From the IMG/VR virus record IMGVR_UViG_2541047851_000007: a stretch of 41,096 nucleotides of DNA, one strand, 5' to 3'. Below, piece after piece: positions 1 through 35,082 of the stretch (within the stretch, counting starts at the first letter, position 1; every line of letters begins with the position of its first letter). The stretch comes from a virus (taxonomy: Duplodnaviria > Heunggongvirae > Uroviricota > Caudoviricetes). Under the pieces are notes generated by a model. The model was given only the letters and a program-made list of their open reading frames with translations, was not told the DNA's origin and did no database searches. The translations under genes were made by a program, and so were the position numbers.

Positions 1-14
1 GGTTTGGGAGAAGG
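1..14. repeat. Right crossover half-site of invertible tail-fibre segment (partial; rest upstream of window)
   Basis: Positions 1-12 ggtttgggagaa match the reverse complement of 1827-1838 at 11/12. Confidence 0.5.
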
Positions 15-456
15 TGCTCCAGCTATTGGCGTTCCGTTCTTCTGGCCGTCCGCCGCAATGCCAAATTCTGTCATCGACAGCTGGTCCGGTATGGTGTTTT
101 TGAAGTTCAACGGGGCGAAATTTTCTGCCACTGATTACCCTGTGCTGGCGAAAGTGTTTCCTTCGCTGGTATTACCTGAAGCCCGCGGTGATTTCATTCG
201 TATCTGGGATGACGGGCGAGGTGCAGATGGTGGTCGCGAATTATTAAGCTGGCAGGAAGCTACAAACTTTTCTCAGTTTGCCGGGAATATAGGCGGAGGT
301 GCGGGACACGCAATTGACTTTCATGATGGCATCGCCGGAAATCAGCCAGGATTTTCACGATTTAATTTCACCAGTAACTCTGTGGGTGATGGTGTGAATT
401 TTGTTGCTGTCAGACCGCGAAATATTGCATTTAACTTTCTGGTGAGGGCTAAATAA
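4..456 (+). CDS. Alternative tail-fibre C-terminal segment (S'v-like), no own start; expressed only after inversion
   Basis: Frame open to window start; begins GLGEGAPAIG, the same GLGE encoded at the crossover site of the minus-strand fibre gene; tail-fibre-like C-terminus ...RPRNIAFNFLVRAK. Confidence 0.6.
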   Translation: MGEGAPAIGVPFFWPSAAMPNSVIDSWSGMVFLKFNGAKFSATDYPVLAKVFPSLVLPEARGDFIRIWDDGRGADGGRELLSWQEATNFSQFAGNIGGGAGHAIDFHDGIAGNQPGFSRFNFTSNSVGDGVNFVAVRPRNIAFNFLVRAK

Positions 457-1049
457 TGAAACCTGTTTTTGATGAAAATGGGCTGGCTACAGTGCCGGGC
501 GATATGCGTTGTTTTTATTATGATGCTGAAACAACTGAGTATACGGGCTGGTCTGATGAATATATTAATACTGGCGTAAGTATGCCCGCCTGTTCCACTG
601 GTATTGACCCGGGCGAAAACATTCCGGGAAAAGTGGCAGTATTTACGGGTAAGGGATGGAGCCATGAAGAAGACCATCGCAATGAGACTGTTTACTCAAC
701 AGAAAATGGTGCAGCTGTTACAGTGGATTATATCGGTGCCATCAAAGACGGTTATGTCACGCTTTCACCGTTAACGCCATACGATAAATGGGATGGTGAG
801 AAATGGGTGACGGATACCGAGGCACAGCATAGCGCCGCAGTAGGCGCGGCAGAAGCACAGCGCCAGTCGCTGATTGATGCAGCAATGGCTTCCATTAGTC
901 TGATTCAGCTGAAATTACAGGCCGGGCGGAAACTGACGCAGGCAGAAACAACCCGGCTTAACGCTGTGCTGGATTACATTGACGCGGTGACGGCAACAGA
1001 TACCAGCACCGCGCCGGATGTCATCTGGCCTGAACTGACGGAGGCGTAG
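456..1049 (+). CDS. Tail fibre assembly protein (partner of alternative fibre segment)
   Basis: 197 aa; Tfa-like C-terminus (LNAVLDYIDAV...APDVIWPE); start overlaps stop of upstream fibre segment. Confidence 0.7.
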   Translation: MKPVFDENGLATVPGDMRCFYYDAETTEYTGWSDEYINTGVSMPACSTGIDPGENIPGKVAVFTGKGWSHEEDHRNETVYSTENGAAVTVDYIGAIKDGYVTLSPLTPYDKWDGEKWVTDTEAQHSAAVGAAEAQRQSLIDAAMASISLIQLKLQAGRKLTQAETTRLNAVLDYIDAVTATDTSTAPDVIWPELTEA

Positions 1050-1461
1050 GCCATTCAATATCTGGCGCACTGGAAGTATCGACCATTTCCAGTGCGTCCA
1101 GGTAATCCAGCCACAAATTATATTGCGCCAGTTCCTCACCTTTCAGACGACCAATAGCCGCTTTACCAGGCCATTGTTTACTGTTCATATAATCGTTGGC
1201 CTGATTAATCAATTGCTGCTTTTCCAGTTCGGCTGCAGCAATCTGTTCCTCATGCGTTGGTGGTGGAATTTCAGACCATGCAGGAAAACCATTTTCTCCA
1301 GCGATACGGATTTTTCCTTCCGGCGGTAATCCGGAAAACTCAATATACACTTGCTCATCAACTTCAACAGCATCATCTGGCCATGAGTCAGCTTGCGTGT
1401 AATCCTCTTTCATCTCCAAGGGATAGAAAGAGTTTGTAGTCGCGGAATATATGTAATTCAT
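1021..1461 (-). CDS. Tail fibre assembly protein (partner of currently expressed fibre)
   Basis: 146 aa; C-terminus NLWLDYLDALEMVDTSSAPDIEWP is paralogous to the plus-strand Tfa; the two genes converge and overlap. Confidence 0.7.
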   Translation of the reverse strand: MNYIYSATTNSFYPLEMKEDYTQADSWPDDAVEVDEQVYIEFSGLPPEGKIRIAGENGFPAWSEIPPPTHEEQIAAAELEKQQLINQANDYMNSKQWPGKAAIGRLKGEELAQYNLWLDYLDALEMVDTSSAPDIEWPTPPSVQAR

Positions 1462-1487
1462 TTTTCACTCCATAAAGTTAAAAGAAA

Positions 1488-2195
1488 TTAACACCCTAAT
1501 GCGAAAAATGAAGCACCGATACCGGGTACGCCTGCTCTGGAAATAAATTTCACCGGGTCCTGGTTATAACCGGCACAAGCTATATAGCCAACATTTGCAC
1601 TGCCGGGAGTGTAATCCTGAGTCGCAAATACCCGCAGACATCTGTTCGGAAATGCAATCGGAAAATAGGTTACTGTGTCCTGAGACGTCAGCGGAACATC
1701 AATTGGCCCCCATTGAATAATTAAACCGGATGGCAATTTTTGATATCCAGGAACTGAAGCAGAAAGCATAAAACTACCCATATCAGGTATCTGATTCGTC
1801 CCTGTCCCCACATTCCTTTTTGCCGCCTCTCCCAAACCAAGGTTTTCGAGAGCCGTTTTCACCGTGCCATCCGATTTGATATCGCCAAACGGATTCTTGC
1901 GGCTCAGGTATTCAACAGCAAACCCCGATCCCAGCAATTCAACAAAACCGGGCAGATCACCATTATCAAGCACATCCCGTTGCGTTTTGTCACTTACAAA
2001 CTGGGCCAGAGCTGCAGCAATAAAGCTGGCCTGCCGAATAACCTTATTGACTTGCGCACTGGATGCTTTCCCTGCTGTAAATCCGGATAAAAGCGCAGGC
2101 AACGCTTCCCATTCCTCCTGCGACATAACATTGGCATTTTTACCCGTTGCGAATGCTTTAAAGTCATTTTTTGCCATCAGAGTAATACTCCCCAT
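1488..2195 (-). CDS. Tail fibre protein (constant N-terminus + variable C-terminus in current orientation)
   Basis: 235 aa; residues about 117-123 (ENLGLGE) are encoded by the crossover site; sits after baseplate genes. Confidence 0.65.
1827..1852. repeat. Hin/Gin/Pin-type recombination (crossover) site inside tail-fibre gene
   Basis: ctctcccaaacc-aa-ggttttcgagag: imperfect 12-bp inverted halves around a central AA; core AAACCAAGGTTTT as in hix/gix sites (recalled from memory). Confidence 0.6.
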
Positions 2196-2857
2196 GCCCC
2201 TACATCAAAACCACTGATGAATTCGTTATCCATATCAAAACCAAAAAATTTTGAACCTTCCGATGGGGTTTCCACCGAAGGTGTTTCAATGCCACCCGCC
2301 CACACCCCGGCGGCTTTTACTGTGAGATATCCCTGTTTAATTGCAGCAATTAACTCACGCGATACATCTGAAATATCAGTATCAGGAAAGACCCAGACCG
2401 ATATCGTCATGTCCTGGTTATCGACTATCTGCATTCGCAGCCCGGATCCTGCTGTTGCCGCGTCAAGAATTACCGGAAGCGAATCATTCCGTCCGTCCCA
2501 GTTATTAATCGCAATCTTCGCTTTAAGGATGACACGATAAGTTTCATCGCTGAGGTACATGTATCCGGAATCAGGATCGTATGGCCCCTGCCATACACCC
2601 TGATCATATCCAAGCCCGTCGGTATCCCAGCTGAAATAGACACCTGAGATAGGCTGGCTGACAACACGGCTACGTCCGATCCACAATCCAAGAATGTCAA
2701 GTTGCACACCAACCGCGGAGTCAATATCAAATGCAGTAATCAACCCTCTGGTGGCCGCCGCAACATCAATAAGCGGCCGGGTCATCAGATCAACATGCGC
2801 AAGAAATTTAGGTTTGGTGGCGTGGTAGTTCGTGATTAGTTCGGTGTATTTGCTCAT
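2177..2857 (-). CDS. Baseplate/tail-fibre-proximal protein (YmfQ / Mu gp48-like)
   Basis: 226 aa; position between J-like baseplate gene and fibre; family assignment from memory. Confidence 0.5.
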
Positions 2858-4053
2858 GACTCCACCGTTATAACGATATTTTCCGGGGTACAGGACGCAG
2901 ATTCGTTGTATCTGATATCAATGTTTGATGACGACAAAGCCCCCGGGGATTTCCCAATCGTCAGTTCCTGAATATCGTAATAGCGTGCATTCCCGCCACT
3001 CACCACGCCAAGATTCGCCGGTGAGTAAATGCGACTTAAAAGGACCGAATCACCAATCATCAGACTATTGATATAGTCGGAAATAGCCTGCTGGATCTGC
3101 TGCCCTATCTGTGAGGTATAACCCGTAAAAACTTTTAATTTAATCCGGGCATAAACAGGCACATCACTGGAACGCGAGAATTTGATTACATGGGGATTGC
3201 CGTATTTATCCGGAACCGTAACGGATGTTGTACCGTGAGTGGCTGTCCCCTGGCCTTTATTTCCTCTGATAGCCTGAGCAATATCCGTCACATCACCGCC
3301 ATCCACAATTACAGCAACAGAGTGTGGCGGTAACCCGTTACCGTCCTCTGAACCAGTATCGTTTTCATAGAGTTTGTGGCGGGTTACACCGGTAACATTA
3401 GAAACAGCACCATCCAGTGCTTCAAATGGGGTTATTGATGGCAACGCAACACTTTGCGACTGACGGATACGTAACTCCGCATCAGTTTCTGCCGGAGTGC
3501 CTACAGTAGCTGCAGCAGGATTGGTTACCGAAACCCAGCCACGGGTTGGCGTATTAATTTCAGTGATAGTTCCAGCCAGCGCCGCCACTGCACCACTGAC
3601 GGAACATGTTGCGGTCGCCATCACTGTACCATCCACGCCGACCACCACTGAAGCAGGCAAACGCCATATCACATTATTACCATCTTTCACGCTGCCATTA
3701 ATGATGGTTGTTCCGGCAGTTCCTGTAAGAAGCAAATCAACCGTAGAGTTCGTCGCGCCTTTACGTGAAATACCATTTATTTTCACGTTACTGGTCAGTG
3801 CAGCCCCATAGCCGGTTGCCGGTGAAAAACAGTTGTAGACAGTTATCGCAGTATTATTGGCATCATGAATCGCCAGCGCCATCAGAGCCACCATCTGGCC
3901 GTCTTTGCTGTCCGGTTCGAGGTAGGCATCACTGCCATAAATCTGCTGAAAATAGCTAATCAGGGTGCTGAGTATCGTCTGATAATCAGGCGCACTGATC
4001 CCCTCCGCGGTTACCTTTGCAGATAAACCGAGAGAATCAAGGTTCAGAGCCAT
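2854..4053 (-). CDS. Baseplate J-like protein
   Basis: 399 aa; size and position in baseplate cluster. Confidence 0.6.
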   Translation of the reverse strand: MALNLDSLGLSAKVTAEGISAPDYQTILSTLISYFQQIYGSDAYLEPDSKDGQMVALMALAIHDANNTAITVYNCFSPATGYGAALTSNVKINGISRKGATNSTVDLLLTGTAGTTIINGSVKDGNNVIWRLPASVVVGVDGTVMATATCSVSGAVAALAGTITEINTPTRGWVSVTNPAAATVGTPAETDAELRIRQSQSVALPSITPFEALDGAVSNVTGVTRHKLYENDTGSEDGNGLPPHSVAVIVDGGDVTDIAQAIRGNKGQGTATHGTTSVTVPDKYGNPHVIKFSRSSDVPVYARIKLKVFTGYTSQIGQQIQQAISDYINSLMIGDSVLLSRIYSPANLGVVSGGNARYYDIQELTIGKSPGALSSSNIDIRYNESASCTPENIVITVES

Positions 4054-5217: not shown

Positions 5218-5613
5218 TCATGAAACTCTAGCAGACTTTAGCTGTTCCCAGCGCTCAAAATAGAGTTCAGCAGCCTCGATTGCATCCTGTCCCATCTCTT
5301 TCGAAACAGTCACATTCGTCAGATCATAGTCAGCTTCATTTCTAGCATCCCGCCACTGGCGAAGTACGAAAGCTAGGGATTTCAGTGTATTTGTCGGGTA
5401 TGGCTCTGATTTGCACTCTGAGGGCGTTGACATATAACCCACAGTATTTTTGTGATGCTCATGGGTAAAATGCGGTATGGCAGTAAGTGAGCTAATAGAC
5501 TCATGTAACATACTGTAATACGCCCTTGAGATAGCGCTTCGAAATCCACTCTCAATATTTTCAGACAGACATAATCGAGCGGTATCGAGAATCTGATTGC
5601 TAGTTACCGACAT
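5218..5613 (-). CDS. HEPN-domain protein (moron, second gene of cassette)
   Basis: 131 aa; N-terminal SRAYYSMLHES and C-terminal WRDARNEADYD...AIEAAELYFE resemble canonical HEPN helices; AT-rich; RBS GGGGTGAG. Confidence 0.55.
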   Translation of the reverse strand: MSVTSNQILDTARLCLSENIESGFRSAISRAYYSMLHESISSLTAIPHFTHEHHKNTVGYMSTPSECKSEPYPTNTLKSLAFVLRQWRDARNEADYDLTNVTVSKEMGQDAIEAAELYFERWEQLKSARVS

Positions 5614-6373
5614 GGTAGCTCACCCCCGTATGCAACTGACGCGGAGAGGTAAATCTAGCTAACAGGGAACAATCATCCAGTTTAGATTCAGCGCAGACTC
5701 TATCAGCCAAGTCGAAGTTCATTTTGGCAATAGTTTTAGGCTCAAGATTTTTAATATCAACAACATAGCAACCGCTTCCACTAAGCTGAACGAAACCTGT
5801 CGTAGCCTTGTATTCACTTAGCAAGCCCCAGATTATGGATGCTAAGGTCTGGAACTGTTCCTTCGAGCACTGTGTGGCGCTATAGAAATTATCCATTTCT
5901 GCAAGGAGTTCTTCTTTGTGCTTCATAGCATTACTCCTGCCTTCTGATTCAGAAAGAAGCTTAATGTGCTCTTCCATATAAAATTTTAACTGTTCACGCT
6001 CGCCGCAACGGTACGCCCAACTGTATGCGTTGTGACTAAAGAGTTTTGTCCGATACTTCTTTGCCAGCGGGACATAGACATCCTTGAGTTCATTATAGCT
6101 AAATGTATTAATTAAAATGTGATGATAGTGCATTGCCAACGTTACATCGTTTACTTCTAGGCTTATCCTGAGATAACGTAACGCGCTTTCAATCTTTCCG
6201 GTTATTGCATCCAGATAAGATAGTGCAATGTTGGTAGCAGGCGTTGGAGAGACAGAAAGTTCCTCTCGAATTTTCTTTTCAGTGAAGGGATCTAAACTTT
6301 CCCTATCCAATAGAAGCGCATTGAATTGTTCAATATATTTTTGCGCTTTTTCTAATGGGATGCCTGCCGCCAT
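5600..6373 (-). CDS. Hypothetical all-alpha protein (moron, first gene of cassette)
   Basis: 257 aa; overlaps the HEPN gene by 14 bp; AT-rich; no recognisable motif. Confidence 0.55.
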   Translation of the reverse strand: MAAGIPLEKAQKYIEQFNALLLDRESLDPFTEKKIREELSVSPTPATNIALSYLDAITGKIESALRYLRISLEVNDVTLAMHYHHILINTFSYNELKDVYVPLAKKYRTKLFSHNAYSWAYRCGEREQLKFYMEEHIKLLSESEGRSNAMKHKEELLAEMDNFYSATQCSKEQFQTLASIIWGLLSEYKATTGFVQLSGSGCYVVDIKNLEPKTIAKMNFDLADRVCAESKLDDCSLLARFTSPRQLHTGVSYHVGN

Positions 6374-8170: not shown

Positions 8171-8757
8171 TAGCCGCCCCCCAGTAATGACGCCACGTTA
8201 CCCGTGATGCTTTTCAGCAGTGAAGTATCTGGAGGCTTTGTGGTTTTGTTGCCGCTGTTCTGTACCGCCGACGTGCTGGCCCCTTCCTTCATGTTGGTTT
8301 TATCCGCGACGGTAATCTGCTGTGTCCGGGAGATAATGACCTCCCTCAGGGTGAGGACAGCGGACAGGACGTTTTCGGTTGTCTTGTCCGTCGTCACTTC
8401 CAGCGCCCGGATCAACATGTTGCTGTACAGCCGTTTACCGGTTACCACATCGAAGGGGATACGGCTTTCCTGCAGACCCAGTAGCTCCTGATACGTCTGC
8501 TGAGGACTCAGGCCGAGCAGGCTGGTAGCCGTCAGGTTACTGGCAAAATCCAGCAATGCGCCGCCACCGGCGAAACCAACCTCCATCACCACTTCTGACG
8601 GTTTTTTATAGGCATGATCAGCGACAGCGGCCCCGACCTCTACCGGATGCTCTGTTATTTCAAGCATATCTGTATGCTTCTCTGAAATAACAACACTGGG
8701 AACAATCATTCCTATTTTTCTGCTCTGCTGATGAAAAAGTGTAGAGAGAATATCCAC
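8170..8757 (-). CDS. Tail/baseplate-associated hypothetical protein
   Basis: 195 aa; immediately downstream of tape measure gene. Confidence 0.4.
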   Translation of the reverse strand: MDILSTLFHQQSRKIGMIVPSVVISEKHTDMLEITEHPVEVGAAVADHAYKKPSEVVMEVGFAGGGALLDFASNLTATSLLGLSPQQTYQELLGLQESRIPFDVVTGKRLYSNMLIRALEVTTDKTTENVLSAVLTLREVIISRTQQITVADKTNMKEGASTSAVQNSGNKTTKPPDTSLLKSITGNVASLLGGG

Positions 8758-10763
8758 TAACCCACCCTCACCTGATTACTTCGCATGACCTGAGCATTTG
8801 CAGACTGTTGCCGACGTGCAACCTCATTACCGACAGCGTGCGGATCTCCGCCACCGTAAATGTGGTAGGTATTTTGCTGGTTAACCTCTGTCACTTTGCC
8901 ACTAATTCCCGCCACGGCAGCCTTATTAATCAGCTCTCGAGAATAGATATTTCTTCCATTCTCATGCTGGATAATGCTGCTCATCAATGCTGACATGGTT
9001 TGCGGATCACTCATATTCAGGGCAGCCCGGGGATCCACTCCCAGTCGTTGCGATACAGCCCTGATATACGCTGTTGTGTTGTTATTATCAGACGCAGGTG
9101 CCCAGGTAGAGATAATTTTCTCCACACTGTTTATTCCCCGTCCGGCGTACAGCATTAACTGACGAGCAAGAGCCCGTAATCCATCAAAGGCAGTTTCAAA
9201 TCTGGCAAATCGCCCGCCCGGGCGTTCAAGAGAAGCCCCTGCCTGACCAGCAAAATTAAGGTTTCCCGGATTGTTATTCCGTTCTCCTCGTTTCGTAGCC
9301 TGTGCATATTGTTCCGGCTCAGCACCTGGAATATCTGACTGAATATTTGCGCCTTTTACGGTATGAGGATTACGACCAAAATCGGTATCAATGCCAAGCC
9401 AGCGCAATGAATCTCCAATATTTTGTTTCGTGTAATCCCAGGATGACTTCGCACTGGCACCAATATTTTCGCGATCAGAGTACAAATACGCAGCATAAGC
9501 CATCCAGCCTTTTAACCACGGCGGGACCGGCAAACCTGATATTTTCCCGAAAGCCCCCAGAACCCTGGATACCCAGACACCCGCGATGAATGTACCAAGG
9601 ATTTCCAGTGCATTTTGCCAGCCGCCAACACCATCTTTTAGTTCCAGAAGGTGATCACGAAGCCAGGTGATCGCATCCTTCGCTTTATCTATTGCCGGTT
9701 GCCATTTTTCCCAGTCGATAAGACTGTTACCGCCTTCTTTCCATGTTTTGTAGTCTTCCCACAAGAGACCGAGAGCCACGATCAGACCGGTAATCAGCCC
9801 TATAGGTGACATCCAGAAAGTAGAGTTAAGTATCCGCATGGCGACAACCAGACCGCCGATAACCTCTATCAGGGTTTTCGTTTCGGCATCCAGTTTCCCC
9901 CACCACTCGATGATATCTCCGACACCATCGACTATCCGAAATGCTACCCGCCCGACTATCTCACCCAGCCAGAGGATCCCCTTTATGACCTTTGTGATGG
10001 TGACTTCAATTTTGGGAAAATTTTCAATTATCTTTTTGCGCAGGTTATCAATCTGCCCCGCCAGTCCGTCCGCAAGATTCGATCCGATTTTGTCCCGCGC
10101 CATCCTGGCCATTTCACCGAGCGATTTCAGCGAGGTCATAAACCGGTTTGACGATAAGGCAGCCTGATCGGCATTAAATCCGATCGCTTTCACCATTTCT
10201 GAATACTGAGCGCTGAACTGCCCCACTCCGCGACGCATAGCCATCAGGGTATTTTCGTCAATGCCCAGCATCTGCGCATACTGGTTAGCCCGGTAATACG
10301 GCATGCTGCTGAGTTTCTGTCCAACGCCCGTAAAGATAGCAGCCATGTCACGCATGTTACCGCTGGCATCACGGGTCTGTACGCCCAGGCGATTCAGAAA
10401 GCCTTCTGCTCCGGGATTGTTACGAATAAACCGGGAGAGGCTTTCCAGAGAAGATCGCGCAGCGTCCACACTGCCGCCAACCTGCGAAACCGCATAGCCA
10501 ATAGACTGAATTCCCTGGACCGTCGCGCCGGTGCGCTGTGACGCCCAGTAAAGATTATCCAGGCCGGAGGCGATCTTAGCCGTGAAGGCCACCACGGACA
10601 GCGCAGCCCCTTCAACAGCCAGCCCCATTTTGATGACATTTGCAGTTGTACCGGCGAGGACAGAACCGAACTTTTTCGCTCCTGCATCATCCACACTGAA
10701 GCCAAGCGAGACGAGGAAATCTTTAATAGTTTCAGCGTTCATTATCCTCTCTCCATTTCTCAA
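8757..10763 (-). CDS. Tail tape measure protein
   Basis: 668 aa; helical with hydrophobic central segments; position after tail chaperone. Confidence 0.8.
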   Translation of the reverse strand: MRNGERIMNAETIKDFLVSLGFSVDDAGAKKFGSVLAGTTANVIKMGLAVEGAALSVVAFTAKIASGLDNLYWASQRTGATVQGIQSIGYAVSQVGGSVDAARSSLESLSRFIRNNPGAEGFLNRLGVQTRDASGNMRDMAAIFTGVGQKLSSMPYYRANQYAQMLGIDENTLMAMRRGVGQFSAQYSEMVKAIGFNADQAALSSNRFMTSLKSLGEMARMARDKIGSNLADGLAGQIDNLRKKIIENFPKIEVTITKVIKGILWLGEIVGRVAFRIVDGVGDIIEWWGKLDAETKTLIEVIGGLVVAMRILNSTFWMSPIGLITGLIVALGLLWEDYKTWKEGGNSLIDWEKWQPAIDKAKDAITWLRDHLLELKDGVGGWQNALEILGTFIAGVWVSRVLGAFGKISGLPVPPWLKGWMAYAAYLYSDRENIGASAKSSWDYTKQNIGDSLRWLGIDTDFGRNPHTVKGANIQSDIPGAEPEQYAQATKRGERNNNPGNLNFAGQAGASLERPGGRFARFETAFDGLRALARQLMLYAGRGINSVEKIISTWAPASDNNNTTAYIRAVSQRLGVDPRAALNMSDPQTMSALMSSIIQHENGRNIYSRELINKAAVAGISGKVTEVNQQNTYHIYGGGDPHAVGNEVARRQQSANAQVMRSNQVRVG

Positions 10764-24539: not shown

Positions 24540-24718
24540 TGTTACCACCTGTTACCACTGTTACCACCATGTTCTTAACCTTTCCCTGAACGACTTATAT
24601 ATATATATGGGGTTGTTAGTAATAAGGTGGTAACAGTGGTAACAGTGGTAACAAACCTTAAATTTCAATACGTTAAAAAGTTACCACCTTACCTTTGCAG
24701 GTGGTAACAGGTGGTTAC
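24540..24718. repeat. Iteron-type replication origin (inverted iteron sets flanking AT-rich tract)
   Basis: Three direct TGTTACCAC(C) repeats (24540-24570), tatatatatatat (24596-24608), three inverted GGTGGTAACA-type repeats (24627-24654), more copies at 24680-24688 and 24700-24718. Confidence 0.65.
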
Positions 24719-26883
24719 GCCCGCCGCCAAACCTTCATTAACTTGCCTTCAACACGTCGTGTTTCACGCTTATATCCGCAATTTTGCAAAACATTGCTAA
24801 TTCGCATTTCTTCGCGTTTTCCGATGCGGTCAGGTTTTAACCCAATCGCATCTCGCAGGACGTCACTAGCACGTAAAAATTCGCAATTTCGCGGAAGTTC
24901 ATTAGTCATCAGGTCGGGCGTGTCGAGCCATTTCTCTACCGTTTCAAGCCAGGCATCCTTGATGGTGTACTGCTCATGGACACTCGCTGCCAGTTGTTCA
25001 GCCTCACGGAACTGGATACCCCCCAGACGCTGAAACACCTCACGAGCCTCAGCCCAAAGTAAAAGGAGATCTCTTTTTATCGCTTTCACGTCGACTTTCG
25101 ACACTTCCACGGGGAGCCAGCGACGGTTACCAGTCTTGTCCGCAAGGAATTCGTCCTCATTGGTGGTACCAACGAACACCAGGCGACGAGGAAACTGGGT
25201 GGCGAACTCCCGGTATTTCGGGATCCAGTTTTCGTGAGTACGCGTCACAAACGCTTTGATTGACTCCAGCTCTTTGGTATTAAGTCCGCGCAGTTCACCA
25301 ATCTCTGCCACCAGCCGACCACGCATTTTTCGAGCGAGATCATCGTCTTTTTCGGCAAAAGAGATTTCAGTAAAAAACGCAGGATCAGGGCTCAGTGCCT
25401 CCACTCCGGAAGACTTACCGCAGCCCTGCGGACCAACGAGGATCGGCACCATATCCGCTTTGATGCCTGGCTCCAGTACTCGCCCCGCCAACGCGGTCCA
25501 CATGTACATAGACACCGCACGGGTATAAGGCGTGTCGGCGGTACCGAAGTGCGTATGGTAGAAACATTCGATGCGCGGCACGCCATCCCACTCCAGTCCG
25601 TTCAGCCAGGTGATCGCTGAATCGAATGGTTGTTCATCGGCTGCAAGTAACACCACATCGCGAATAAGTTCACGGCCAACAGGTTTAAATCCCCGCTTTT
25701 CCATCGTGATGCGCAGGCGCGCATAATCCGCATCGGTGAATGCCCGCCATTGTCCGGATCCTGCCGGGGCAAACATGATTTCGTCGCGGAACTGGTCAAA
25801 GCGAATATCGATGTCCACAAAATCAGGGCGTACTACTGCTTTGGCTGCGTTGCTGATTGTTGCCTCGATACGCCCCCATTTATCACGCTCGAAAGCAGGC
25901 AGCGGTAAAGGTTCCGCCACTTCGGTGCTGGTCAGATCTTCGAAATCGTCGTTGCGGATCCCGATGGCATTCAGGAAATCTCCGTCATCACGATGCGCGC
26001 AACTGGCATGCAGGCATTTAAAATGCCCCTGCTCAAAGCCTGCGGTTCCCGCAGGAAAATAAACTGTGCTTGTTGGATCGCCTCCGCTACTGTGGCCGTC
26101 TTCAAACGGACAGCGGATATATCGTTCACCGTTTGCGCCATCCAGCAGCGTCCAGCCATTGGCATCAAGATATTCAGCTGTATCATCCGTCGCGCCGGGC
26201 GTGAATGCTGAACGGTCGCGCATCTTCGTGTTGCCCGCTTCGGTGGTTACCGACACAGGGAGTTGTTCAGCCAGGCGCTGCCACAGCGTTTCAAGCTGCT
26301 CACCAGTAATAGCCGGAGGTTCATCCGGCAAACCGCCGTCCCATTCAATACGCGCGCCGCTGCTGTGCGTACCGCAGGCAACGAACTGCTGCCCGTTCGC
26401 CAGCAACTCGATAATGCCCATATCCCCCGCCAGGCGATGGATACGCTTACGGAAATCACCATCAACGGCCAGCAGATACAGACACTTATTACTGTTTGCT
26501 CGCCAGCGTCGCGGCGGCGACTCACCCAGAAGTTGCACAAGTGTTTTGCGAATATCTGCCTGAATGTCTTCATCTTCGCTATCGCAGTCCAGCGCCAGCC
26601 AGCCATGGCCTGTACGCACGCAGATCCCATAGTCCGGTTCGTTCGACCAGCGGGCAAAATCATGCTCAGTTACGACGTGCCCAGTCCAGTCGTTAATTCC
26701 GGTAGCCAGACGGTTGCGGTTATACAGGCTCGGCGTTTTGCCAAGCACTTTGAGTTTGCTGTTCGGTGAAATAATCGCGCCCGGATTGCACACGACCGGT
26801 AGCAGCTGGTCCGTACGACCCAGCACCAGGTCGAAGTGGAACCATTCGTCAGGCGTCGCCCCCCACGGTTTGCTATCAGACAT
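24715..26883 (-). CDS. Replication primase-helicase (P4 alpha-like)
   Basis: 722 aa; Cys/His zinc-binding motif, Walker A GPQGCGKSS, downstream FVGTTNEDEF...TGNRRWLPV; adjacent to iterons. Confidence 0.8.
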   Translation of the reverse strand: MSDSKPWGATPDEWFHFDLVLGRTDQLLPVVCNPGAIISPNSKLKVLGKTPSLYNRNRLATGINDWTGHVVTEHDFARWSNEPDYGICVRTGHGWLALDCDSEDEDIQADIRKTLVQLLGESPPRRWRANSNKCLYLLAVDGDFRKRIHRLAGDMGIIELLANGQQFVACGTHSSGARIEWDGGLPDEPPAITGEQLETLWQRLAEQLPVSVTTEAGNTKMRDRSAFTPGATDDTAEYLDANGWTLLDGANGERYIRCPFEDGHSSGGDPTSTVYFPAGTAGFEQGHFKCLHASCAHRDDGDFLNAIGIRNDDFEDLTSTEVAEPLPLPAFERDKWGRIEATISNAAKAVVRPDFVDIDIRFDQFRDEIMFAPAGSGQWRAFTDADYARLRITMEKRGFKPVGRELIRDVVLLAADEQPFDSAITWLNGLEWDGVPRIECFYHTHFGTADTPYTRAVSMYMWTALAGRVLEPGIKADMVPILVGPQGCGKSSGVEALSPDPAFFTEISFAEKDDDLARKMRGRLVAEIGELRGLNTKELESIKAFVTRTHENWIPKYREFATQFPRRLVFVGTTNEDEFLADKTGNRRWLPVEVSKVDVKAIKRDLLLLWAEAREVFQRLGGIQFREAEQLAASVHEQYTIKDAWLETVEKWLDTPDLMTNELPRNCEFLRASDVLRDAIGLKPDRIGKREEMRISNVLQNCGYKRETRRVEGKLMKVWRRA

Positions 26884-28224: not shown

Positions 28225-28794
28225 TTACTGGTTGTAAGGATCGTAATCCGTGATTGCCTTCCCCGGATTTTCATCTTCAGAAGGCAGTCGGGCCTCTAAA
28301 GCATTTCGGTTGAACAGATAGGAAGCCCTACAGTACGAACAAACCATATTAACGGCTCGCCCAAGGCCTGGCTTAGTAACCAGTCCTTCCGCTTGCAATA
28401 TAGATTTTCTCTTTTGCTCGTAGCAATTGGGACAAATATAAACCGGAGATTGGTCAGCATCTGCAGAAAGCTTGCTGCGATAGACCAGAGTCCCCCGCAT
28501 AGGCTGGTAAAGTTCATAGCTCGCCGCTTCAGCGGCCCAGTTCTCTTGCTTTACTTTCTCATTTTCCAGTTCAACAATTTTCTCCTTAGCCGCAATCAGC
28601 AGCTCCTGAAGCGACATTTGCTGCATCTGAACATCCATTAGCTTATCGAGTAAGATGTGCGTCTTCTCTTTAACTGCATAGTCTACAGTCAGATTCTGAA
28701 TCTCTCTTGCTGCTCCAACCGCGCTTTTAATTGCTCCTCCCACGCCGGATAACGATTCAGTTATCCGGGAAAGAATTCCTTTTTCTTCAGACAT
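28225..28794 (-). CDS. Coiled-coil / zinc-ribbon protein, unknown function (immunity-region moron)
   Basis: 189 aa; helical N-terminus; CPNC...x25...CSYC at C-terminus; convergent with cI, divergent from early operon; AT-rich. Confidence 0.55.
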   Translation of the reverse strand: MSEEKGILSRITESLSGVGGAIKSAVGAAREIQNLTVDYAVKEKTHILLDKLMDVQMQQMSLQELLIAAKEKIVELENEKVKQENWAAEAASYELYQPMRGTLVYRSKLSADADQSPVYICPNCYEQKRKSILQAEGLVTKPGLGRAVNMVCSYCRASYLFNRNALEARLPSEDENPGKAITDYDPYNQ

Positions 28795-28998: not shown

Positions 28999-29167
28999 TG
29001 AAAAAAGGAATACAACCGATGAAACCTGAACACATCCATCGACTGACGGGGCGCGATGTTCTCCGTTATCGCCGTAAAAACTTCGATTTGATGACCGGTC
29101 TGGCCGTTGCCACTGCGCTCGGTCTGATCATCACTTTCATTCTCCTTGTAGCGAGGACCACAGTATG
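28999..29167 (+). CDS. Small single-pass membrane protein (first ORF of early operon)
   Basis: 56 aa read by eye ([56 protein letters not shown]); AAAGGAA RBS; stop overlaps next ATG. Confidence 0.35.
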
Positions 29168-30067
29168 AGTTTAGAAACCAGTCTAGAACTTAATAATCAA
29201 CTTCTGGCACAACATAATGCGCTGCTTGAACGTCTTATCCGCACAATGGCATCAGGCATTGTTATGCATCCTGACACGATTTCACGAGTGCAGGAATGTC
29301 GGGATACAGCAACTGAAACTGAAAATATGTCAGCGGCAATGACACTGGATGATCTGGAGTTCAGCGACGTTATCGCACTGGCTGGTTTCTACCCGGTAGC
29401 CACCCCTATCACAGAAGACATGCTGCAACGTGCTGTTGCCTACCGTGATGCTGAAGGCGATAAACGAGTTGTTCAGATTGATGCTCTCGACAGCGCATTG
29501 CAGGGCGTCAAACGAGCCAGGGCGCTGCTTAAACCTGCTCTCCTGGACCTGTCCCGTAACATCCTTAAGTTCTGGGACGACCTGCCAACCATCGGCGAGC
29601 GACGTGCTTTTGCCGAGCAGCTACTTGATGCACCTGCAGATGGGCGTGATGAAGTTAAGCCGAAAAAGGCCAGTAACAAAGATGGAGAACGCACGGGGCC
29701 GTTTTACGTCAAAAATGTATCCGGCACAGCAGCCAGTGAACTCCATACCTTACGCAAGTTGAACGAGATGCTTAAAAAAGGCCATATCGAGATCAACCGT
29801 GTTGAGTACCTTCAGCTGCAGGAAGAATTTGCACGCAGAGACGCAGCAAATTCCAGCCAGAATAATGACGCCAAAGATGACCATACAATTGATTTCGCGG
29901 CACTACGCAAACAAGCTGAAGGGTTGATCCTCCAGTTAGCAAAAGGGGGTTACCGGGCAGAAGCTATTGCAATTCTGGAAAAACAGGGAGCCAGGAAACT
30001 TGGTGAAGTAACGGATGAAAATCTCGCTGAAGTAATCACCCTGGCTGAAAAAGCACTGGAGGGTTAA
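29165..30067 (+). CDS. Hypothetical early protein
   Basis: 300 aa; helical, acidic; coupled to following nuclease gene. Confidence 0.5.
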
Positions 30068-30069
30068 TC

Positions 30070-31371
30070 ATGCCAGACGTTCATGCACAACTTTCTCCAT
30101 CATCAGCGCATCGATGGATGCGCTGCCCAGGAAGTCTGGCGCTGGAGGCCACACAACCGGATAAAGAAACAACTTTTGCAATCGAGGGCACTGCAGCGCA
30201 TGCACTTGCCGAAAAGGTGCTGCGCAACCGCCAGAGCCACCCGGAGCACTATGCAGGTTGCAACGTCGCGATGTTCCTTGGATCCTATCCTCTTGCTGAG
30301 CACCCGGATGATACTTCCGGCCCGCAGGTAGATGAGGAAATGGTCGAAGCCGTTGGTCGTTACGTCGACACTGTTTGGGCGCTGGCGCAGGGCAATGAGC
30401 TGCTGGTCGAGCAGCGTGTCGACTTCTCCCATATAACGGGTGTGGAAGAATCTTTCGGAACTGCCGACAGCATAATCATTGCTGGTAGCGAATTACAAAT
30501 CCACGACCTGAAATATGGCAAAGGCGTCCGCATTGATGCAGAACAAAATGAGCAACTACAACTGTATGCTCTGGGTGCGCTCGAACAATTCAGCATGCTG
30601 TATGACTTTGAGACTGTAAGATTATTTATTCACCAGCCGCGGCTTAACCACGTTTCAGAGTGGGCTCTGACGGTGGAAGAGCTCCAGGCGTTCGGTGAAC
30701 GGGCACAGGAGGCCGCAACCAGTGCGATCCTTGTTCTCAATATTGCTGAATGCGAAGGCATTGAGACACTACCGCTGGAAAACTTCATACCTGGAGAAAA
30801 ACAGTGCCGCTTCTGTAAAGCAAAAGCTATTTGCACTGCCCAGAAAATGCAGCATTTACAAACAGCGGCCAGCGACTTTGAAGATCTGACAAAGCCTGTC
30901 AGCGAAATAATCACCAATGCCAGCGCACGTGTACCTCTGTTAACCATTGAGCAGCTTGCGGAGATCTATAGCCAGACCGACTTTATTGAGTCCTGGCTAA
31001 AGGCAGTACGGGACCGGGTTCACAATGAACTCAATGCCGGACATCCGGTACCGGGGTTTAAACTGGTAACAGGAAAACAAGGTAACCGGGCCTGGAGTGA
31101 TGAAGAGGCAGCTCGCGCACTTCTGAAGGACCAGTTCAGGTACAAAACTGAAGAAGTATTCGACTTTAAACTTATTAGTCCCACAAAAGCCGAAAAACTT
31201 ATCAAAAAGGCCAGTCCGCGCCGTTGGTCAAAAGTCGAGGCACTGATAACACGAGCTGATGGTAAACCCACCGTCGTTCCCGAGTCAGACCCACGCCCCG
31301 CACTCAATATCAACCCTGTAAATGATTTCGACGACGTATCCGACGATACGCTAACCGCAGACCTCATCTGA
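30070..31371 (+). CDS. PD-(D/E)xK nuclease, Cas4/RecB-like
   Basis: 433 aa; IHDLKYGKG (D-x-K), QLQLYALG (QxxxY), Cys cluster [10 protein letters not shown]. Confidence 0.65.
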
Positions 31372-31386
31372 TTTAAGGAAATCCCC

Positions 31387-31935
31387 ATGAAACTGAAGCT
31401 GAACAATGTTCGTCTGGCCTTCCCGTCTCTGTTTGAAGCTAAAACTGTAAACGGCGAAGGCGATCCGCGTTTCTCCGCAGTATTTTTAATGTCTCCCAAA
31501 CACCCACAACTGGAAGAAATCCGTAAAGCTATGAAGCAGGTAGCGAAGGAAAAATGGGGGGAGAAGTGGGAGTCCATTTATAACCAGCTGGAGAAAAAAC
31601 TCAATCTGTGCCTGCATGATGGTGATGAAAAAGCAGAGTATGAAGGCTTTCCCGGCAATTTCTTCCTGAACGCTGCTAACAAAGCGCGCCCAGCTGTTCT
31701 TGATCGCGATCGTTCGCCACTAATTCAGGCTGATGGACGTCCCTATGCAGGGTGCTATGTAAACGCCGTTATCGATATCTGGGCACAGGACAATAATTTC
31801 GGTAAACGCATTAATGCCTCACTCGGCGGAGTCCAGTTCCTGCGAGACGGCGATGCATTCGCTGGCGGCGGAGTGGCAAGCGCTGACGATTTCGACGATA
31901 TCAGCGAAGGTGCTGATGCTGAAGCACTAATTTAA
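31387..31935 (+). CDS. Phage ssDNA-binding-like protein
   Basis: 182 aa; between nuclease and polymerase; acidic C-terminal tail (DDFDDISEGADAEALI). Confidence 0.45.
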   Translation: MKLKLNNVRLAFPSLFEAKTVNGEGDPRFSAVFLMSPKHPQLEEIRKAMKQVAKEKWGEKWESIYNQLEKKLNLCLHDGDEKAEYEGFPGNFFLNAANKARPAVLDRDRSPLIQADGRPYAGCYVNAVIDIWAQDNNFGKRINASLGGVQFLRDGDAFAGGGVASADDFDDISEGADAEALI

Positions 31936-31956
31936 AAATATTCATCCCCCAGCTGC

Positions 31957-32625
31957 GTGCTGGGGGATCTCATGAGGGAAAGAATAATGTCACAGCCCGT
32001 ATTAACTAATTACCTTAAAACTCAAATCATCAATAACGCACTTGAGAAAGCGGGTATCCCCAAACGTAAATCAGCACTACGAGCTGCTCGTGTTGAATGG
32101 GCCGAACGTGTTCGGCTTGCAGCTATCGGGGGCGTAGAGAAAGAAGCTGAAATATTAAAAAATATAAAAAAAATAGAAACACTGGTATCAAAATTCCCCG
32201 AAGCATTAAAAACCGCCAATAACATTATCAGGGAAGAGTGTTACATGTGTCTGAATCTGGCAGGTTCTCGGGTTACCGTCTATTTCAACGGTAACTACCG
32301 AGGATATGAATCAGGGTCACCAGACCATATTCACAAAATCGCGCCGGGGGAATTTACCCTTCTGGCAAATGACCCTCTAGTTACAGAGTTTTACGGGTTT
32401 GATACACTTTATGAGCAGATACAGAGCGATGAGTCAGACATTCGACAGAATGTCAGCGCTGCACTCAGTAAAGTGCGCACAGTTAAGCGCCTGCTGGAAG
32501 AGTGGCCTGAAGCTAAAGAACTTCTGCCAGCCGATGCACCATCTGCTCCGCTTCCGCCAGCTATACGACGCGAAACTCTCAACGAAATGATCGGCCTCCC
32601 TTCTGACGAAGGGGTAGATGCTTAA
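31957..32625 (+). CDS. Hypothetical early protein (likely start at 31987)
   Basis: 222 aa ORF; internal Met with RBS GAGGGAAAG. Confidence 0.45.
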   Translation: MLGDLMRERIMSQPVLTNYLKTQIINNALEKAGIPKRKSALRAARVEWAERVRLAAIGGVEKEAEILKNIKKIETLVSKFPEALKTANNIIREECYMCLNLAGSRVTVYFNGNYRGYESGSPDHIHKIAPGEFTLLANDPLVTEFYGFDTLYEQIQSDESDIRQNVSAALSKVRTVKRLLEEWPEAKELLPADAPSAPLPPAIRRETLNEMIGLPSDEGVDA

Positions 32626-32692
32626 TATTTCTTATAACAAAGGCTGGCTTAAGAAAATAGTTATCCAAACCAGCCTACCGCAATACTAAAAA

Positions 32693-32962
32693 TTAAAATT
32701 CATTGAATTTAAAAAGACATTTCCCTATTGGATTGCCATAGTCTCTACATACCGAAATGCTGTCCCATACAGGCTGAGCCAAACACCCAAGAAAGAACCC
32801 AATAAGCGCAAAAATTATAATTTTGGGAAGAACACGATCCTTAGGACCTTCTTCACGTTCGAGCCATGCGCCACCAGCCCGAACTATTCTCCCTAAAATA
32901 TAAAGAATGGGGAAAGCAATAATACCTATCAATGAAAGTATTCCGATACCAAAGCTAAACAC
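32693..32962 (-). CDS. Small two-helix membrane protein, opposite-strand moron
   Basis: 89 aa; two hydrophobic helices; GTG start with GGAG RBS; very AT-rich; antisense to flanking operon. Confidence 0.45.
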   Translation of the reverse strand: MFSFGIGILSLIGIIAFPILYILGRIVRAGGAWLEREEGPKDRVLPKIIIFALIGFFLGCLAQPVWDSISVCRDYGNPIGKCLFKFNEF

Positions 32963-33018
32963 CGCCGTCTCCTTGTTTATTTACACCTACATAACCATAT
33001 ATCACACAAGGTTATTTT

Positions 33019-35082
33019 ATGTCCAATATACTATGGGGTGACCTAGAAACCTATTGCGAAATCCCTATTACGAACGGTACCCATGCGTATGCCGAAGGCG
33101 TTGAAGTGATGCTGTTCGCATGGGCTATCAACGACGAGCCCGTAAACGTGTGGGATATCACTGCCGGTGGTGGTATTCCACACGGCTTATACGAAGCAAT
33201 CGCAGCCCCTGAAACCCTGCTTTATTTTCATAACTCTCACTTCGACCGCACCGTCCTGCGTTATGCAATGCCGCGCCTGGCACCGCCAGTCGAACGTTGG
33301 CGCGACACAATGGTGCAGGCGCTGGCGCACGGTCTCCCGGGGTCTCTGGGGGAACTCTGCGAAGTACTAGGCGTCCCGCAAGACAAAGCGAAGGACAAAG
33401 AAGGTAAAGCGCTGATCCAGCTGTTCTGTAAGCCACGCCCGAAAAACAGCAAACTGCGCCGGGCCACCAGCAAAACCCACCCGGAAGAATGGCGGCGCTT
33501 TGTTGCTTACGCCGGACTGGATATCGAGGCAATGCGCGAAGTCTATAAACGTCTGCCGAAGTGGAATTATCAGGGGACAGAACTGGCGCTCTGGCATCGT
33601 GATCAGCAGATCAACGACCGGGGCGTCTGCATGGACATTCAACTCGCGCGCGCTGCGATCGAAGCGGTAGACCAGGAGCAAAAGCGCCTGGCAAAGCGTA
33701 CACAGGAAATGACTGATGGCGAAGTGCAGGCAGCAACACAACGGGACGCGTTGATTAAGCACATCGTTGAATCCTACGGTGTGGAGCTACCAGACATGCA
33801 ACGCAGTACTCTGGAACGTCGTATAGCCGACCCCGATTTACCATCTGCCGTGAAAGAACTGCTGGCTATCCGCCTGCAGGCCAGTACTACCAGCACCAGT
33901 AAATACAAGGCACTGATGAAAGGCGTAAGCCACGACGGGCGCTTACGCGGTACGCTACAGTTCTGCGGGGCGTCACGTACCGGTCGTTGGGCCGGACGGC
34001 TATTCCAGCCCCAGAACCTTCCCCGCCCTTCACTAAAACAGGAACAAATAGACGAAGGCATCGAAGCACTGAAAGCCGGATGTGCAGACCTGCTGTTTGA
34101 CAATATCATGGAACTAACCAGTTCAGCGTTACGTGGCTGCATTATCGCGCCAACAGGCAAAAAACTGGTGGTAAGTGACTTGTCGAACATTGAAGGCCGT
34201 ATGCTGGCATGGCTGGCGGGAGAAGAATGGAAACTGAATGCATTCAGAGAGTACGACGCCGGAACGGGTCCGGACTTATATAAACTGGCGTATGCAAAAG
34301 CTTTCGATATTGCACCAGATGATGTTGATAAACACATGCGTCAGATCGGTAAAGTCATGGAACTCGGTCTGGGTTATGGAGGTGGTGTATCGGCTTTCAT
34401 CACTTTTGCTCTGGTTTACGGTCTCGATCTCGACGAGCTGGCGAACGCCGCACTGCCAAACATTCCCCGCGATGTTATCCGCGAGGCGAAAAGCTGGTAC
34501 AACGAATCGGTTAAACGTAAGTCGACCTTTGGCCTGTCCGAGCGTGTATTCATCGCATGTGACTCGCTCAAGCGCCTGTGGCGCAGGGCGCACCCGGCGA
34601 CCTGCGATTTCTGGTACGAACTGGAGCGCACCGTCCGCACTGCAATCGCCACACCGCAAAAAACATTGTATTGCGGTTATCTTAAAATCCGCCGCGATGG
34701 CGCGTGGCTGCGCATACAGCTACCATCCGGACGCGCTGTATGCTACCCCTCTCCGGTTATCGAAAAAGGGAATATCACCTATATGGGTGTTAACTCTTAT
34801 TCGCGTAAATGGCAACGACTCAAAACCTACGGCGGAAAGCTGGTAGAGAACGTCACCCAGGCGGCCGCCCGCGACGTTCTGGCCGGAAACATGCCGCTTA
34901 TCGAAGATGCCGGTTACAGCATTGTGCTGACGGTACACGACGAGGTGATCACCGAAGCACCTGACACAGAAGATTTCAACGATAAAGCGCTTTCCGCGCT
35001 TCTCTCCACTAACCCCGAATGGGCGCCCGATATCCCACTGAACGCTGGCGGTTTTGAGGCGTACCACTACCGTAAGGATTAA
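33019..35082 (+). CDS. Family A DNA polymerase with 3'-5' exonuclease domain
   Basis: 687 aa; exo motif DLET; motif [14 protein letters not shown]; motif [17 protein letters not shown]; motif C LTVHDEV. Confidence 0.85.

Follow-up and report, generated by a model that had tools for sequence, protein, structure and literature searches.

At the tail-operon end of a myovirus prophage inserted in yfhL of Escherichia coli lies a locus that is very probably a site-specific inversion switch of the Pin type, i.e., of the Hin/Gin/Cin/Pin family. It is an ordinary, working copy of the classic e14/Mu-type switch, a kind of system that is already very well known. The analysis covered a window of 41,096 nucleotides, which is the whole stretch of phage DNA under consideration; the carrier is a 42.8-kb, complete-looking SEN34-like prophage. 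DNA upstream of the window was read in complete E. coli genomes that agree with the window at every base of its first 3 kb, and the 12-15 kb loci read in this way differ from the window at 1-4 positions. Positions designated L001 refer to the locus including this upstream DNA.

Invertase gene and crossover sites

The first-pass annotation, made from the window letters only, had proposed that an invertible tail-fiber segment begins at the window edge and that a serine invertase gene and the missing half of a crossover site should lie just upstream. Both were found in the complete genomes. An intact serine invertase gene, annotated pinE, occupies the minus strand 69-623 nt upstream of the window (184 aa); it is thus located 68 nt to the left of the window edge, with its transcription leading away from the segment. 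The protein contains the Pfam domains Resolvase (residues 3-135, E 9e-52) and HTH_7 (residues 138-179), as well as Ser9 in the sequence VRVSTNDQ; small serine recombinases of this family typically have ~185-190 aa and a catalytic Ser at about residue 9-10. It is identical to PinE of the K-12 e14 element in 176 of 184 residues (95.7%, with 92.5% identity in nucleotides), and its residues 1-181 align with Mu Gin (PDB 3uj3/4m6f, E 2e-93). Also present is the Q..RL motif of DNA-binding helix 1, which is conserved among Fis/enhancer-dependent invertases (PMC3798978).

This switch may depend on Fis and an enhancer. No convincing enhancer was located. In this family, the recombinational enhancer acts in cis and consists of two Fis sites with 48-bp spacing in the 5' part of the invertase gene (pin nt ~90-170). 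When 300 nt from the start of each of pin, K-12 pinE and Mu gin were scanned, no G-N13-C core pair 48 bp apart was found at pin nt ~90-170. Such pairs were found at pin nt 200/248 and 229/277, with centers that are A/T-poor and unconvincing, and a single candidate Fis core at pin nt 94-108 (GAAGACAAAATAAGC) is common to Mu gin (GAAGATAAATTAAGC). Over its initial 200 nt, pin agrees with K-12 pinE at 196 positions, and therefore any e14 enhancer is retained. A promoter scan of the cassette revealed no clear pin promoter, and matches were no commoner than in shuffled sequences.

The two 26-bp sites have a 12-2-12 structure with imperfect dyad symmetry, and a site alignment showed that both fit the Mu gix pattern. 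Their plus-strand cores are TT and AA; therefore, the sites are mutually inverted, and the segment between them measures 1,840 bp from core to core. The complete pin-proximal site, TTTTCATAAACG-TT-GGTTTGGGAGAA, extends from window position -14 to 12 (L001 5987-6012). Its central TT falls at -1 to 0 and window position 1 is the first base past it, so that only the inner half is within the window and the outer half is seen upstream in the complete genomes. As first proposed, window positions 1-12 are an 11/12 match to the reverse complement of 1827-1838, and they read G-L-G-E in frame with the open reading frame (ORF) ending at 456. The inverted repeat continues beyond the window edge, to a total of 18 nt with one mismatch (window -7 to 11 against 1828-1845). 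PGAP annotates a pseudogene that begins 6 nt further upstream than the window start, and the window edge is therefore not the boundary of that pseudogene.

The fiber-side site was located where it had been described, in a minus-strand fiber gene at the codons for ENLGLGE: it lies within the ORF 1488-2195 and spans codons A-L-E-N-L-G-L-G-E, with its core AA (1839-1840) providing bases 2 and 3 of a minus-strand Leu (CTT) codon. The site pattern TCNNAAACCWWGGTTTNNGA has one match, with no mismatches, in the 41-kb window; in the 15-kb locus, upstream DNA included, it has two and no more, a count that was reached in at most 5 of 200 shuffles. With only these 2 sites in 15 kb, a multi-site, shufflon-like (Min-type) arrangement is ruled out.

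Alternative fiber C-termini and their chaperones

Features of the inversion cassette and the adjoining tail genes, in window coordinates
Feature	Position	Strand	Remarks
Inner half-site of the pin-proximal 26-bp site	1-12		GGTTTGGGAGAA; full site identical to the K-12 e14 pin-proximal site
Alternative ("silent") fiber C-terminus (Sv')	1-456	+	151 codons, GLGE to stop; PHROG tail-fiber C-termini
Tfa chaperone paired with Sv', 197 aa	456-1049	+	Caudo_TAP, E 1e-26; phrog_105; 64% identical to e14 TfaE
Tfa chaperone paired with Sv, 146 aa	1021-1461	-	Caudo_TAP, E 2e-38; 53% identical to e14 TfaP
Currently expressed variable fiber C-terminus (Sv)	1488-1838	-	Inside segment; Pfam Gp53-like_C
Fiber-side 26-bp crossover site	1827-1852		CTCTCCCAAACC-AA-GGTTTTCGAGAG; 1 nt off the e14 fiber-side site
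Constant N-terminal fiber part (Sc), ~113 codons	1839-2177	-	Outside segment; PHROG tail-fiber N-termini phrog_1396, phrog_11303
Baseplate wedge genes: DUF2612 (226 aa), Baseplate_J (399 aa)	2177-4053	-	Directly upstream of fiber gene, same strand

The fiber gene is transcribed together with the baseplate genes, which supply its transcription. PGAP places its start at 2177, and the longest ORF starts at 2195; both fusions to the constant N-terminus form uninterrupted, in-frame ORFs (229/235 aa and 264/270 aa). The C-termini themselves come from two different families. In the 229-aa fiber, Gp53-like_C covers residues 147-229 (E 5e-18), and Sv' is of the PHROG collar-fiber type, matching positions 211-381 of 382 in phrog_3100 (E 6e-52). 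The latter family holds natural full-length fibers that match the constant part plus Sv'. At 229 or 264 aa, the fiber is unusually short.

Each C-terminus is closely followed by its Tfa gene: the ATG of the 197-aa Tfa overlaps the Sv' stop codon (TAATG), and 26 nt separate the end of Sv from the 146-aa Tfa. The two Tfa genes are convergent and their 3' ends overlap by 29 nt, in agreement with the first description of this region, and both proteins have the Caudo_TAP domain. The earlier view that inversion swaps the fiber C-terminus together with its chaperone was borne out by genomes carrying the segment in the opposite orientation, in which the flipped fusion is an annotated coding sequence (WP_029404455.1, 264 aa) with the 197-aa Tfa directly after it. 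The plus-strand segment had also been called promoterless. No consensus promoter was found in front of it, but the segment does have its own start outside the window: in the complete genomes, the pin-proximal Sv' frame runs 42 nt past the window edge to an ATG (L001 5959) that is preceded by AGGA and sits in the stretch separating pin from the site.

As in other members of the family, Pin dimers on the two sites would synapse, cut the central dinucleotide, rotate and rejoin the ends, and the segment would flip. Catalysis is probably carried out by the resident Pin and not by another invertase. The constant N-terminus (~113 aa) and the promoter would stay in place, and the flip would exchange the C-terminal receptor-binding part and the Tfa that is read. 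In the window orientation, the predicted products are a 229-aa fiber with a Gp53-like C-terminus and the 146-aa Tfa; in the flipped orientation, they would be a 264-aa fiber with a collar-fiber-like C-terminus and the 197-aa Tfa. A lysogen population could then give rise to two virion types with different receptor specificity, and the flip may change host range.

Both orientations in nature and alternative explanations

Junctions of the flipped state were built in silico, and 600-nt junction queries were searched at 100% identity in complete genomes. Each predicted flipped junction was present over the full 600 nt in 5 complete genomes and the unflipped junctions in 6, i.e., among 11 genomes with identical junctions, six have the orientation of the window and five are inverted. 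These are differences between assemblies, not within one culture. Two near-clonal pairs differ by the inversion: over 12 kb, BH100 and BH100N are distinguished by an exact inversion plus 1 SNP, and RIVM_C036204 and RIVM_C029670 by the inversion alone. The expectation in the first-pass annotation that both orientations would be observed was thus confirmed in assemblies. A comparison of flipped and unflipped sister genomes also located the exchange. Of the marker bases, the one at L001 6012/7827 travels with the segment and those at 5998/7841 stay; therefore, the exchange occurred within TTGGTTTGGGAGA, core included. This interval corresponds to 1828-1840, and although it contains the core dinucleotide, the resolution is 13 bp, not 2 bp.

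These data bear directly on other explanations of the locus. If the sites and Tfa genes were relics of a cassette that no longer flips, they would resemble the fixed fiber-Tfa modules of many P2-like and lambdoid phages. The window alone has one complete site, and pieces of the cassette without the whole occur in many genomes (2,916 of 5,426 match some part of it, and at least 80% of the 3 kb is matched in 13 only). However, pin is intact, both sites match functional e14 sites, the genomes with identical junctions are split six to five, and the near-clonal pairs differ by exactly the inversion, which essentially refutes this reading and leaves it very improbable. That the orientation differences are assembly artefacts of deposited genomes is hardly credible at all. 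A segment between inverted repeats can be placed the wrong way round by an assembler, but the 18-nt repeat is far shorter than the reads, so there is no assembly ambiguity; in addition, the breakpoints are exactly at the invertase sites, the marker bases are swapped as the mechanism predicts, and at least two distinct sets of strains, one from Brazil and one from the Netherlands, show the difference. It is also quite unlikely, if less so than either of these, that the flip is real and is due to another resident invertase acting in trans or to RecA recombination between short inverted repeats. For RecA, the common repeat is merely 18 nt with a mismatch, which is too short for efficient recombination, and the exchange interval includes the invertase core dinucleotide. 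E. coli genomes commonly carry Pin-like genes (up to 6-9 matching places in one genome), and PinQ, from the Qin prophage, is reported to be more effective than PinE at inverting the e14 P segment (PMC12529663). Against this, the adjacent pin is intact and encodes a close relative of PinE; mutants of pinE are reported to be stuck in a single orientation, and overproduction of PinE to raise inversion (PMC12529663). Inversion by the resident Pin is the preferred reading.

An additional role in the lysogen, compatible with the switch, is improbable but can be formulated: the pin-proximal copy might be expressed as a free receptor-binding fragment together with Tfa and mask a surface receptor against other phages, and a flip would switch the masked receptor. 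In either orientation, this copy is an ORF of 165 or 130 aa that starts between pin and the site, at an ATG with an AGGA, the 130-aa form is a PGAP coding sequence (WP_227431557.1), and the matching Tfa gene is next on the same strand. StfE2, the corresponding chimera of e14, is reported to block adsorption of T2 (PMC12529663). However, the cassette scan detected no consensus promoter ahead of the pin-proximal copy; the lone plus-strand promoter-like match (9/12) lies inside pin, and such matches are no commoner than in shuffles. Furthermore, the 14-codon leader of this copy shares its DNA with the crossover site and the presumed promoter of pin, and its conservation can therefore be explained without a coding role. 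Were this role real, which we consider doubtful, a flip would change the phages that are excluded, and the locus would be an invertase-driven two-state superinfection-exclusion switch on an intact prophage.

Relation to known inversion systems

The likeness to Mu G, P1 C and the e14 P segment that was pointed out in the initial reading is apt, and the layout matches e14 gene for gene. The P segment of K-12 e14, with PinE, has the same gene order and orientation (stfP-tfaP-tfaE-stfE'-pinE), the same 29-nt tail-to-tail Tfa overlap, the same conserved fiber "hinge" (87 nt at 94%) and, in front of the pin-proximal copy, the same leader of 14 codons. The e14 sites used for comparison come from the K-12 genome itself; the pin-side site agrees with its e14 counterpart in 26 of 26 positions and the fiber-side site in 25 of 26. 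The segment is 1,840 bp here and 1,797 bp in e14 (PMC12529663), and the e14 P segment flips experimentally (PMC4272514, PMC12529663). The two systems differ in their receptor-binding parts, which are 40-45% identical, and in their Tfa proteins (53-64%). The fiber N-terminus and the upstream gene are unrelated, the latter coding for a DUF2612 baseplate wedge protein here and DUF2313 YmfQ in e14. The carriers are also different, e14 being a 15-kb remnant in icd and the present one the complete-looking prophage in yfhL, which is unrelated to e14 outside the cassette. Cargo ORFs that were checked in this prophage (window 5218-6373 and 28225-28794; L001 4650-5297) returned nothing from PADLOC or NCBIfam.

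In the G segment of Mu, the invertase (Gin) is homologous over its full length (E 2e-93), the 26-bp sites follow the same pattern, and the crossover is likewise inside the fiber gene, with the constant N-terminus outside the segment. Two C-termini, each with an assembly protein, are arranged tail to tail within the segment, and the invertase is adjacent and outside. However, the Mu segment is ~3 kb and its fiber ~500 aa with a 170-aa constant part, as compared with 1.84 kb and fibers of 229 and 264 aa here; the core dinucleotide is GA/TC in Mu and AA/TT here; and the Mu U/U' genes do not overlap, whereas the Tfa genes here do. The P1 C segment with Cin is grouped with Mu G/Gin as a similar invertible fiber system.

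Hin and the H segment, responsible for flagellar phase variation in Salmonella, belong to the recombinase family of Pin and use 26-bp sites of the same type; residues 142-182 of Pin match the DNA-binding domain of Hin, and the invertasome mechanism is presumed to be common to Pin (PMC3798978). In contrast to the present locus, where coding 3' ends are exchanged within one gene, Hin flips a promoter and is an on/off transcriptional switch. The Sp1 prophage of O157:H7 Sakai (pinE-yfdL-yfdK-tfaE-fiber) keeps the same order of genes, pinE being adjacent, and its fiber gene is 97.5% identical to the flipped fiber junction over 600 nt. Sp1 differs in being a degraded lambda-like remnant in which the fiber gene abuts a replication-gene pseudogene, so that no tail remains to carry the fiber, and its second cassette is of the yfdL/yfdK type, not Gp53-like. 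O157 strain 319, which seemed to carry a flipped Sp1, has an IS1203-flanked and truncated cassette and was not counted as an inversion.

The value of these observations is practical rather than conceptual. Annotations such as "hypothetical protein" and "incomplete phage tail protein" at this locus represent two states of one fiber gene. The BH100/BH100N and RIVM pairs, in which the locus differs by the flip, are natural controls for host range or lysogen phenotype in each state; nothing on this locus was found in the literature for BH100. The Pin cassette, comprising the invertase, the sites, the fiber hinge and the Tfa C-terminal halves, is a portable module, found here on a baseplate unrelated to that of e14. 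Finally, in genome comparisons a 1.84-kb inversion at this position is expected phase variation, not a rearrangement or an assembly error.

Crossover sites and the adjacent invertase

The first-pass annotation had read window positions 1-1852 as an invertible tail-fibre segment. This reading is supported, since the invertase, the second half-site and both orientations have all been seen. Inside the window, its description of the sequence proved accurate. The fibre-side crossover site, CTCTCCCAAACC-AA-GGTTTTCGAGAG, lies within the minus-strand fibre gene and on that strand encodes (A)LENLGLGE. At the window edge, positions 1-12, GGTTTGGGAGAA, match 1827-1838 in reverse complement at all but one base and encode GLGE in frame with the ORF ending at 456. 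The two tail-fibre assembly (Tfa) genes are convergent and overlap by 29 nt.

The minus-strand fibre (229 aa, counted from its annotated start) has a Gp53-like C-terminal domain in Pfam and is preceded on the same strand by DUF2612 and Baseplate_J genes. The plus-strand fibre fragment has no match in Pfam and resembles the C-terminal part of several PHROG tail-fibre families. Of these, phrog_3100 also matches, through its N-terminal part, the constant N-terminus of the minus-strand fibre, so natural full-length fibres that join the constant part to the fragment exist.

Features of the prophage and related loci. Positions are those of the window unless marked L001 (locus from a complete E. coli genome with the same prophage, including DNA upstream of the window) or L010 (locus of prophage Sp1, O157:H7 Sakai)
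Feature	Position	Strand	Remark
Fibre-side crossover site	1827-1852		within ORF 1488-2195
Fibre ORF	1488-2195	-	
Tail-fibre assembly gene	456-1049	+	Pfam Caudo_TAP
Tail-fibre assembly gene	1021-1461	-	Pfam Caudo_TAP
131-aa ORF	5218-5613	-	phrog_5176
257-aa ORF	5600-6373	-	phrog_17809
Tape-measure-like gene	8757-10763	-	lytic transglycosylase domain
VapE-domain protein	24715-26883	-	722 aa
Early region	29165-39030	+	replication/modification set
Intact yfhL	40837-41096		
18-bp direct repeat	L001 4098-4115; 40866-40883		
WP_001288820.1	L001 4650-5297	+	215 aa, hypothetical
Sp1 pinE cassette	L010 1322-4139		

Window 1-3000 has a 100% match in six complete E. coli genomes, and 3 substitutions in 41,096 nt separate the full window from RIVM_C036204. 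The upstream DNA was read in the complete genomes BH100, F11 and RIVM_C036204, in which TTTTCATAAACG-TT lies directly left of the window edge; the window therefore starts directly behind the central dinucleotide of a complete 26-bp site. A partial "phage tail protein" feature (PGAP/RefSeq) begins 6 nt left of the window start, and the right end of the window is the stop codon of yfhL. Read on one strand, the cores of the two sites are TT and AA; thus, the sites are inverted relative to each other, which is the requirement for inversion rather than deletion. A family-style pattern, TCNNAAACCWWGGTTTNNGA, with up to 3 mismatches allowed, has one match in the window, with 0 mismatches, and exactly two matches in the 15-kb locus that includes upstream DNA. 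A chance match is ruled out.

An intact gene for a 184-aa protein, annotated pinE, begins 68 nt left of the window and runs leftwards, so that the invertase predicted just upstream, like the complementary half-site, is present in complete genomes. Its product, Pin, contains Resolvase and HTH_7 domains and is identical at 176 of 184 residues to PinE of e14, the K-12 defective prophage with the invertible P segment (196/200 over the first 200 nt of the gene). Residues 1-181 align with the sequences of Mu Gin crystal structures (E 2e-93), and Pin has both Ser9 and the Q..RL motif, which is reported to be specific to Fis/enhancer-dependent invertases (PMC3798978). A scan of the first 300 nt of pin for the paired Fis cores of an enhancer (G-N13-C, 48 bp apart) gave no convincing pair. 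When the e14 sites were taken from the K-12 genome itself, the pin-side site, TTCTCCCAAACC-AA-CGTTTATGAAAA, was identical to that found here, and the fibre-side site, TTCTCCCAAACC-AA-GGTTTTCGAGAG, differed at the first base. The Mu gix sites, TTATCCAAAACC-TC-GGTTTACAGGAA and TTCCTGTAAACC-GA-GGTTTTGGATAA, have the same pattern.

Inversion in complete genomes and its consequences

We built the two junctions expected after a flip of window 1-1838 and searched for them in 5,426 complete E. coli genomes. The same five genomes (BH100N substr. MG2017, RIVM_C029670, RIVM_C040348, HG994850 and HG994851) contain both flipped junctions, each with 100% identity along its full 600 nt, and the unflipped junctions have 100% matches in six genomes (BH100 MG2014, BH100 MG2017, Ecol_542, F11, RIVM_C036204 and RIVM_C040753). 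Over 12 kb, BH100 and BH100N differ by the exact inversion and one SNP in mltF, and by nothing else; between RIVM_C036204 and RIVM_C029670, inversion is the sole difference over the same length. The two expected orientations are thus observed within at least two strain lineages.

Sequence differences between the two sites provide marker bases by which the exchange can be located. The marker at L001 6012/7827 travels with the segment and that at L001 5998/7841 stays put, which places the exchange within TTGGTTTGGGAGA (window -1 to 11, negative positions lying left of the edge, and 1828-1840), an interval that includes the central dinucleotide. The flip itself is probably made by the adjacent Pin, and another resident invertase is a less likely source; PinQ is reported to work in trans on e14 (PMC12529663).

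The flipped genomes have a fibre CDS of 264 aa (WP_029404455.1, annotated merely as "hypothetical protein") with the 197-aa Tfa immediately downstream, and the Gp53-like end and the 146-aa Tfa face pin. Inversion swaps the fibre C-terminus together with its chaperone, as had been proposed. The constant part (~113 aa) and transcription from the baseplate genes stay in place during the flip, and one promoter and one N-terminus serve two alternative receptor-binding ends, each with its own chaperone. This is the same logic as in Mu G and e14 P. Since the two ends belong to different families, we infer that they would bind different receptors.

In complete genomes, the pin-proximal copy, i.e., the alternative fibre end facing pin, is an ORF of 165 aa in the window orientation and 130 aa when flipped, and the 130-aa form is annotated as a CDS by PGAP. 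The plus-strand segment had been called promoterless. A search for a promoter of this copy found no credible one, but the copy has its own ATG (L001 5959) with AGGA just upstream. The same 14-codon leader is present in e14; since it coincides in part with the crossover site and with the region upstream of pin, its conservation can be explained without a coding role. The e14 counterpart, the chimera StfE2, is claimed to block phage T2 adsorption (2025, PMC12529663), and for this reason an additional lysogen-level role of the pin-proximal copy is retained as a low-probability reading by analogy.

The carrier prophage

The cassette lies at the left end of a 42.8-kb prophage bounded by an 18-bp direct repeat, AATTGTGATATGTGTGAA, inside the yfhL 5' end. 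On the integrase side, yfhL remains intact because the prophage supplies it with a new 5' end; the yfhH side retains a 17-codon stub. The left repeat is 1.9 kb left of the window, and the left 1.9 kb of the prophage, absent from the window, holds pin, a 215-aa ORF and a small ORF. Besides terminase, portal, head, sheath/tube-type tail and baseplate genes, the prophage carries lysis genes, a replication module and genes for an integrase, a LexA-family repressor and a Q antiterminator. In the structural half, identity is 98.6% to the vB_EcoM-689R2/606R2 records and 81% to Salmonella phage SEN34. The prophage is apparently complete.

The 215-aa hypothetical protein, encoded between attL and pin and adjoining pin at the prophage end, has no match in PHROG, NCBIfam or PADLOC. 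In O157 strains, the slot beside pinE is occupied by a 257-aa hypothetical protein (Sakai) or a LEM-3-like GIY-YIG protein (strain 319), and it looks like a variable cargo slot. Within the tail operon, the overlapping 131- and 257-aa ORFs, which separate the spike gene from the baseplate genes, match solely PHROG families of unknown function, with no match in NCBIfam or PADLOC; the smaller also lacks a Pfam match, and it carries no RefSeq annotation in the annotations read. These two ORFs look like a cargo (moron) pair. By RefSeq names, the early region encodes DUF2800 and DUF2815 proteins, an Nmad5-family putative nucleotide-modification protein, a family-A-type DNA polymerase, two methyltransferases (one a cytosine methyltransferase), a PDDEXK nuclease and an SNF2-related protein; together with the VapE-domain protein, this set may point to DNA modification by the phage. 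The tape-measure-like gene forms one 668-aa ORF in the window, and BH100 likewise has it as one CDS. The annotation of RIVM_C036204 splits it into two pseudogene pieces, though that genome differs from the window by only the 3 substitutions; the cause may be one inactivating SNP or a quirk of annotation.

Pin cassettes in other backgrounds

Outside the cassette, this prophage and e14 have nothing in common. At the DNA level they share only pin with its adjacent site (92.5%), an 87-nt fibre "hinge" around the fibre-side site (94%), the C-terminal halves of the two Tfa genes (89%) and two more patches of merely 35-51 nt. Identity is 40-45% in the receptor-binding parts, and the baseplate gene upstream is not of the same family. 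The Pin cassette thus behaves like a portable module, and 2,916 of the 5,426 complete E. coli genomes contain parts of it.

The fibre gene of Sp1 is 97.5% identical to the flipped-state fibre and is also adjoined by pinE. The Sp1 cassette resides in a degraded lambda-like remnant, where a replication-gene P pseudogene directly adjoins the fibre gene, leaving no tail to carry the fibre; this cassette is kept without a virion. Matches in many E. coli genomes and P2-like phages begin at window 415/442 or 768 and not at gene ends. Positions 415-442 lie in the alternative fibre end and 768 in the 197-aa Tfa gene. P2-like phages are ~90% identical to window 768-1327, which spans both C-terminal Tfa halves; this suggests mosaic joints inside the Tfa genes.

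The invertible tail-fibre mechanism has been textbook knowledge since the 1980s. Inversion of e14 has been documented by sequencing (PMC4272514, PMC12529663). The system described here belongs to the Hin/Gin/Cin/Pin invertible tail-fibre class and is very closely related to the e14 P segment, from which it differs in its receptor-binding ends and in being carried by another, apparently complete prophage. The most useful by-product is the set of natural genome pairs in which the flip is the only difference at the locus.
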